Assembly (NCBI RefSeq): GCF_013122565.1
Contig: NZ_CP053258.1
Source: Escherichia coli
GTDB lineage: Bacteria > Pseudomonadota > Gammaproteobacteria > Enterobacterales > Enterobacteriaceae
DNA length: 64,000 nucleotides
Strand: one strand, 5' to 3'
The first letter of the stretch is position 1; each line of letters opens with the position of its first letter. Made by a program: the position numbers and the translations under genes. Under the pieces are notes generated by a model. It did no database searches and was not told the DNA's origin. It saw only the letters and a program-made list of their open reading frames with translations. This document shows, one piece after another, positions 13,614 through 14,126 of the stretch.

Positions 13614-14126
13614 TTAGCTGAGGCGTTGAGGGCCAGCACGGATGCCTTGCGCCTGGCTTATCCAGACGGGCGTGCTGAATTTTGCTTGTGGGGTAAAATG
13701 CGCATAATCAATGCGATAACCCTTTTCAGACGGCGTGCCTTCCTGGGTCAGCAGCGCGCTGAGCGTATCCAGTAATGCAAGATGTTGCGCCTGAAGAGGC
13801 AAGGATTCTTCAGCAACGGGCAGCGTTTGCGGTGCCATTGCGAAGGAAAGATGACGGATTACCGTGCGAATGGCATGTTGATGCCAGTAATCAACGGAAT
13901 AGTTCGAATTCGGGCGGCGCGTGTTCGCTTCCAGCAAGGCCAATTGACCAAAGTTAACTTTGGCTGAAGGCTCGTGGTTGCGGGTTGTCGCTTTTGCGGG
14001 CGCGTTTGGTTCGGCGGCGTTGCTGAGCGCAGGCAAACCTAAACTCGCCGCAACCATCCCTAATAAGAGATGCGGCCAGAAGTAGCGTTTACCAAACTGT
14101 CGCCAGCGCGTCAGTATTCCACTCAC
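13614..14126 (-). CDS. secM: secretion monitor SecM (translation-arrest leader of secA)
   Basis: ORF 13614..14279; start placed at the internal GTG ([17 protein letters not shown]...) giving 170 aa; C-terminal arrest motif [17 protein letters not shown] present. Confidence 0.88.
13629..13679 (-). promoter_or_regulatory. secM: SecM ribosome-arrest peptide coding segment (FxxxxWIxxxxGIRAGP)
   Basis: Motif [17 protein letters not shown] is read directly in the translation, 4 codons before the stop. Confidence 0.8.

Follow-up and report, generated by a model that had tools for sequence, protein, structure and literature searches.

Control of secA by secretion-sensing arrest of a nascent chain has been textbook knowledge since 2001-2002. 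[quoted passage not shown] The arrest sequence follows the consensus F150xxxxWIxxxxGIRAGP166 (PMC10987492; PMC10951299). For E. coli K-12, biochemical data and cryo-EM at 2.0 Å show that the stalled ribosome carries Gly165 in its P site and Pro166 in its A site, prior to formation of the peptide bond (PMC10951299; PDB 8qoa), and both the arrest and its release by translocon pulling have been demonstrated (PMC10951299; PDB 8qoa, 3jbv, 9vvi). Residues 1-37 have been described as a secretion signal, with reference to Sarker et al. 2000 (PMC6993859).

Identity and genomic context of secM

The stretch of DNA analysed here (the window, 64 kb) contains a segment on the minus strand, 14126..13614, which we regard, with a probability of about 0.97, as the canonical secM of Escherichia coli, the translation-arrest leader of secA. 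In reverse-complement orientation, the window corresponds to positions ~60,481 to 121,929 of K-12 MG1655 (97-98.6% identity), and the secM region therefore lies on the minus strand. The coding sequence extends from a GTG codon (14126..14124) over 170 codons to the stop codon TAA (13616..13614); its minus-strand translation begins with VSGILTRW and comprises 171 codons including the stop. The annotated secM genes of K-12 (b0097, 107705-108217) and of strain 17MR471 correspond base for base to 14126..13614.

The deduced protein is identical to RefSeq WP_000014320.1 of strain 17MR471 in all 170 residues. The alignment with K-12 SecM, which the first-pass annotation had named as a check, matched 169 of 170 residues (NP_414639.2) and showed the arrest motif conserved. 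At the nucleotide level, eight differences to K-12 were detected in 821 aligned bp, flanks included; three of them fall between lpxC and secM, four are synonymous and a single one, ACC to AGC, leads to T170S. The protein was recognized by the Pfam family PF06558 (4.2e-58, 195.9 bits; cut-off 25) and by the NCBIfam equivalog NF002799 (231.2 bits; cut-off 100). It is furthermore identical to SecM 1-165 in PDB 9vvi chain 6 and 9xwo (165/165 residues), and to PDB 8qoa chain 6 (residues 132-165) over the whole length of that chain. All sequence-level features that define the long-type SecM were tested and all were found; judged from its sequence, the protein is a member of this family and not a mere functional likeness.

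The genomic context agrees with this assignment. A 1-kb query around secM matched 5424 of 5426 complete E. coli genomes, in a single place in each, and the matching records annotate lpxC, a 'secA translation cis-regulator SecM' and secA at this locus. The regulated downstream gene secA (13552..10847, minus; 901 aa) was identified from the ORF list and from its annotation in these records. Its ATG (13552) is located on the same strand, 61 nt past the secM stop, in agreement with the earlier description of secM as lying immediately upstream of secA. The order lpxC-secM-secA was found in K-12, in 17MR471 and in eight other genera, and the gap between secM and secA measures 56-63 nt in all eight loci fetched for comparison (Citrobacter koseri, C. 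sedlakii, Salmonella enterica, Intestinirhabdus, Enterobacter, Raoultella, Yokenella and Phytobacter).

The two family models, the near identity to K-12 SecM and the conserved gene order thus sustain the initial reading of this segment as the SecM leader of secA, and each fact given in the first-pass annotation was confirmed. An intact secM is expected in an E. coli chromosome, and the gene is annotated in about 5,400 genomes. The locus is intact, correctly placed and ordinary, and since nothing in it departs from the published system, it has to be regarded as already known; the label 'established knowledge', under which the first-pass annotation had filed a widely annotated system, was apt.

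Probable stalling of the ribosome on secM

The arrest motif comprises the 17 residues from F150 to P166 (13679..13629, minus) and fits the published consensus, including the critical residues Arg163 and Pro166. A six-frame translation of the 64-kb window contains it at this one place only, and an exact match over 17 amino acids makes a chance origin impossible. Pro166 is followed by Q167, R168, L169 and S170 and then by the stop codon TAA (13616..13614), so that the motif indeed ends, as had been noted initially, four codons before the end of the gene. According to the codon map, the stall site consists of the Gly165 codon GGC (13634..13632, minus) for the P site and the Pro166 codon CCT (13631..13629, minus) for the A site. 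In view of the identity to K-12, these two codons most probably occupy the P and A sites of the stalled ribosome also in this strain. A ribosome-profiling pause at the proline codon had been proposed as further evidence; the profiling papers that were found confine their mention of SecM to the introduction, and none of them could be cited for a trace of the pause.

Predicted masking of the secA Shine-Dalgarno sequence and its relief

Minimum free energy (MFE) and centroid folds of 13700..13530 both contain a helix of 13 bp between 13630..13617 and 13574..13561 (z = -2.5; none of 200 shuffles reached an equal value), and the same helix was obtained in the RNAalifold consensus for all ten sequences from nine genera. 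The 5' arm (13630..13617, minus) is formed by secM codons 166-170 and reads CUCAACGCCUC-A-GC. The 3' arm (13574..13561, minus), GCGGGGCGUUUGAG (GCGGGGCG-U-UUGAG), was taken from the pair list and is nearly invariant in the nine genera. It includes the trinucleotide GAG (13563..13561), which is located 8 nt before the secA ATG and is presumed to be the core of the SD sequence, being the only plausible one for secA. Its predicted pairing probability in the free mRNA is 0.99-1.0.

This GAG pairs with bases 2 and 3 of the Pro166 codon and with base 1 of codon 167, and the 5' arm begins inside the codon assigned to the A site during the stall. The partners of GAG are thus located in and just beyond the A site, so that the stall would have to open the helix, as we infer from how far the mRNA channel of the ribosome is known to extend.

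Complementarity and conservation are the observations that argue for the predicted helix. A covariation test of the helix with the ten sequences from nine genera found compensatory changes in none of 24 pairs; since the arms hardly vary, one of them being coding sequence while the other contains the SD region, the comparison can be reconciled with the helix but decides neither for nor against it. With the K-12 allele in a context of 100 nt, the predicted MFE structure no longer contains the long-range helix and forms a local hairpin (-14.6 kcal/mol), which indicates that the two conformations are close in energy in silico. When the footprint of the stalled ribosome was blocked and only the downstream RNA was folded, the SD region was found in a weak A-U/G-U hairpin (-8.9 kcal/mol), and when upstream mRNA was allowed, the SD region paired again with upstream sequence; both results depend on the context chosen. 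No Rfam family matched 13400-14400 at E ≤ 1, and Rfam holds no family for the secM-secA switch.

Taken together, regulation would most likely proceed as described for K-12, in which the individual steps have been shown experimentally; for the strain investigated here they are deduced from identity. The genes secM and secA would be co-transcribed. In the free mRNA, the last five codons of secM (13630..13617) would pair with 13574..13561 and occlude the secA SD sequence, keeping translation of secA low. During translation of secM, formation of the peptide bond after Gly165 would be blocked jointly by the nascent sequence FxxxxWIxxxxGIRAG, located in the exit tunnel, and by the Pro166-tRNA of the A site, and the ribosome would stall on GGC/CCT. 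The stalled ribosome would cover the 5' arm, the first two bases of which belong to the A-site codon, so that the ribosome-binding site of secA would be freed and secA translated. The signal peptide of 37 residues would target the nascent chain to SecA/SecYEG, where the pull of an active translocon would end the arrest. Impaired secretion would accordingly prolong the stall and lead to a higher expression of secA.

A frequent allele at the last codon of secM

The only amino acid exchange in comparison to K-12 concerns codon 170 (13617..13619), which is AGC for serine here and ACC for threonine in K-12; the changed base is 13618. The first-pass annotation had left this exchange unmentioned. An exact 61-mer with AGC was present in 2293 of 5420 E. 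coli genomes (~42%), and T170S is therefore a common, ordinary allele. The aligned SecM proteins of other genera end with QRLS, or with QHLS in Salmonella bongori. As Ser170 is present in all other genera compared, the Thr170 of K-12 appears to be the derived state in this alignment. Codon 170 is located past the stall site, and the exchange has therefore no effect on the arrested nascent chain.

With G at 13618, the predicted helix gains a G-C pair (13618-13573), where K-12 has C.C. In a context of 181 nt, the MFE amounts to -40.2 kcal/mol for this strain and to -38.4 kcal/mol for K-12. These predictions might be taken to mean that the genomes with AGC (~42% of E. coli) and the other enteric genera repress basal translation of secA slightly tighter than K-12, the strain in which secM-secA was characterised; we consider this unlikely. 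If true, it would represent a slight tuning of basal secA expression, which is speculative and of little consequence.

Translational start of secM

The longest ORF in the secM frame comprises 221 aa and begins with TTG at 14279, as can be seen from the ORF list and as the first-pass annotation had stated. Its further claim, that the internal GTG at 14126 and not this ORF gives the correct start, proved right on several grounds, namely the RefSeq and PDB records, the NCBIfam model, the conservation of GTG across genera, the position of upstream stop codons and the variation at third codon positions. RefSeq annotates the GTG start, and the SecM chains in the PDB begin with MSGILTRW. Positions 1-168 of the NF002799 model (169 positions) aligned to residues 3-169. 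A GTG codon is present at the homologous position in nine of nine genera, and conservation across the aligned SecM proteins begins exactly at (V/M)SGILTRW.

Further evidence comes from the codons that follow the GTG. In codons 2-23, the nine genera show 3, 1 and 11 variable sites at the first, second and third codon positions, respectively, and only three variable amino acid positions, residues 2-23 being nearly invariant. The 24 nt upstream of the GTG have 7, 8 and 8 variable sites in the same comparison. This difference shows that translation covers codons 2-23 and not the preceding sequence.

A sequence resembling an SD element, GGGATGG (14140..14134, minus), was read directly from the DNA at a distance of 7 nt upstream of the GTG; eight of the nine genera have GG(N)(N)GG or GGTGG equally far from this codon. 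It is likely from this position that GGGATGG functions as the SD sequence of secM. Codons 1-37 (14126..14016, minus) encode a long, atypical Sec signal peptide identical to residues 1-37 of K-12 SecM. Its n-region contains four Arg/Lys residues and neither Asp nor Glu, and the most hydrophobic 12-mer of SecM (residues 20-31) forms the hydrophobic core of the signal peptide. An earlier assignment of the secM start, since revised, is reportedly evident from the title of the publication by Sarker, Rudd and Oliver (2000).

Translation could alternatively begin at the ATG of Met24 (14057..14055, minus), which would yield a protein of 147 aa with a short, conventional signal peptide. Met24 is invariant and precedes the hydrophobic core, and the Pfam SecM model starts at this residue. 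However, the near invariance of residues 2-23 speaks against such a start: in nine genera these codons vary mainly at third positions, as is typical of translated sequence, and the pattern ends abruptly above the GTG. In addition, the NF002799 equivalog starts at the N-terminus initiated by GTG, and later papers, which cite the revision of the start, assign the signal sequence to residues 1-37 (PMC6993859; PMC10987492). A start at Met24 is therefore very improbable, and it was rejected because codons 2-23 are conserved in the manner of translated sequence.

The 221-aa ORF, according to which the true product would be SecM with an N-terminal extension of 51 residues, fares worse. In this strain the frame is open for 56 codons above the GTG and contains one TTG and one GTG codon, and automatic gene calls in public data sometimes carry such extensions (P0007, P0062 and P0039). 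In Enterobacter, Raoultella, Yokenella and Phytobacter, however, the codon immediately before the GTG is an in-frame stop. In the remaining four fetched loci the frame upstream of the GTG is open for just 5-14 codons, and these loci offer no upstream start codon except for a single ATG 9 codons up in S. enterica. The extensions in E. coli (P0007), Enterobacter soli (P0062) and S. bongori (P0039) are mutually unrelated in sequence. The extension would moreover span an intergenic region with large indels between genera and without codon periodicity, the PF06558 match begins only at residue 75 of the 221-aa form, and RefSeq and PDB use the GTG form.

The TTG itself points in the same direction. 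The intrinsic terminator of lpxC (14330..14278, minus) consists of the hairpin CGACUGG...CCAGUCG and a tract of nine U residues (fold -28.2 kcal/mol, z = -5.1). Nine of nine genera have kept the hairpin and the T-run, and the inner stem shows compensatory changes (e.g. CTGGC/GCCAG vs CTGAC/GTCAG). The presumed start codon TTG (14279..14277) is composed of the last two U residues of this conserved tract and the next G. The comparative data thus effectively refute the 221-aa ORF, which retains hardly any credibility. For annotation this means that a program calling the longest ORF yields a protein of 221 aa that starts in the lpxC terminator, and that the GTG should be used instead.

Several public E. 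coli entries designated as 'SecM' (P0005-P0007, P0022, P0030 and P0035) have lengths of 215-225 aa and are 97-99% identical to the SecM of this strain over only 75-88% of the length of the latter. P0007, the sole one of them that was aligned, has the spurious upstream extension and a frameshift near codon 147, by which the arrest motif is lost and the frame reads toward secA. As these over-long entries are singletons or belong to very small clusters, assembly errors are likely; a true loss-of-arrest allele of secM would be interesting.

The spacer between lpxC and secM (14150..14260, minus) contains blocks that are strongly conserved across genera, e.g. GCGxxCGCTGxTTTCTTAAGC and TTTAATGATAAGATTTGTGCGC, separated by variable stretches rich in indels. 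These blocks are presumably a promoter or regulatory region of secM-secA. A scan for consensus promoters detected no sigma-70-like site upstream of secM; its sole match (13565..13537) begins shortly before the secA start and extends over it, and the number of matches is at chance level.

Other features of the window

Beside secM, some differences to K-12 were observed elsewhere in the window. Between yabI and thiQ, an insertion of ~1.28 kb is present (51184..52460). It contains an ORF on the plus strand (51375..52355) for an IS110-family transposase of 326 aa, which matched PDB 8wt6, 'IS621 transposase', with E = 1e-218. The site of this insertion is annotated as IS621 in strains C9, ET201 and PT62. 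Its non-coding 5' part of ~190 nt (51184..51374) is what we take to be the location of a putative IS621 bridge RNA.

A segment of ~1.5 kb without counterpart in K-12 (46183..47726) is located between sgrR and the TPP riboswitch of thiB. It harbours an ORF (47520..46684, minus) for a pentapeptide-repeat protein of 278 aa (PF00805, 7e-21). At least 80% of this segment was covered in only 207 of 5426 complete E. coli genomes, and the best match was 97.7% identical. In the araD-araA spacer, 82 bp (57836..57917) matched two adjacent places in K-12 (66645.. and 66649..66730), which indicates a difference in copy number of a tandem or REP-type repeat. The alignment with K-12 also breaks at a match to the REP-derived naRNA4 (10304..10381, minus), due to a difference in repeat copies.

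With regard to structured RNAs, a match to STnc40 of Rfam (10802..10871, minus) extends from the 3' end of secA into the spacer between secA and mutT. A full-length match to the Rfam family RF02797 (PssrA, 'Plasmid-encoded Shigella sRNA A'; 105 bits) was detected at 16518..16607 (minus). The name of this family, which refers to plasmids, is at odds with the location at the chromosomal ftsA-ftsZ junction; an antisense RNA, StfZ, is annotated around this junction in K-12. Known RNAs that were found at full length are SgrS (44236..44462, minus), the leader of the leu operon (38107..38256, plus) and the thiB TPP riboswitch (47762..47861, plus).

Relation to other arrest peptides

The closest described system is SecM of K-12 (b0097, NP_414639.2). 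The secM investigated here agrees with it in the locus, the length of 170 aa, the GTG start, the signal peptide and the arrest motif, and likewise in the stall codons GGC CCT, the 61-nt spacer between secM and secA and the SD region of secA. It differs from K-12 SecM only by T170S and four synonymous changes.

The small-type SecM (PF10818/NF038363), which occurs for example in Mannheimia succiniciproducens, shares the role upstream of secA and a related C-terminal arrest module (PMC10987492). The protein encoded in the window scored below the cut-offs of both small-type models (20.9 vs 26.1 bits and 25.9 vs 45), and it therefore belongs to the long class.

VemP (secDF2), MifM (yidC2) and the RAPP-type proteins ApdA, ApdP and ApcA follow the same logic, in that an N-terminal localisation signal is combined with a C-terminal arrest sequence (PMC10987492). 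They are likewise encoded upstream of a gene for translocation machinery, and the stalled ribosome opens a stem-loop which sequesters the SD sequence (PMC10987492). In contrast to the secM of this locus, they have unrelated sequences, other target genes and another arrest chemistry, and are thus functional analogues only.
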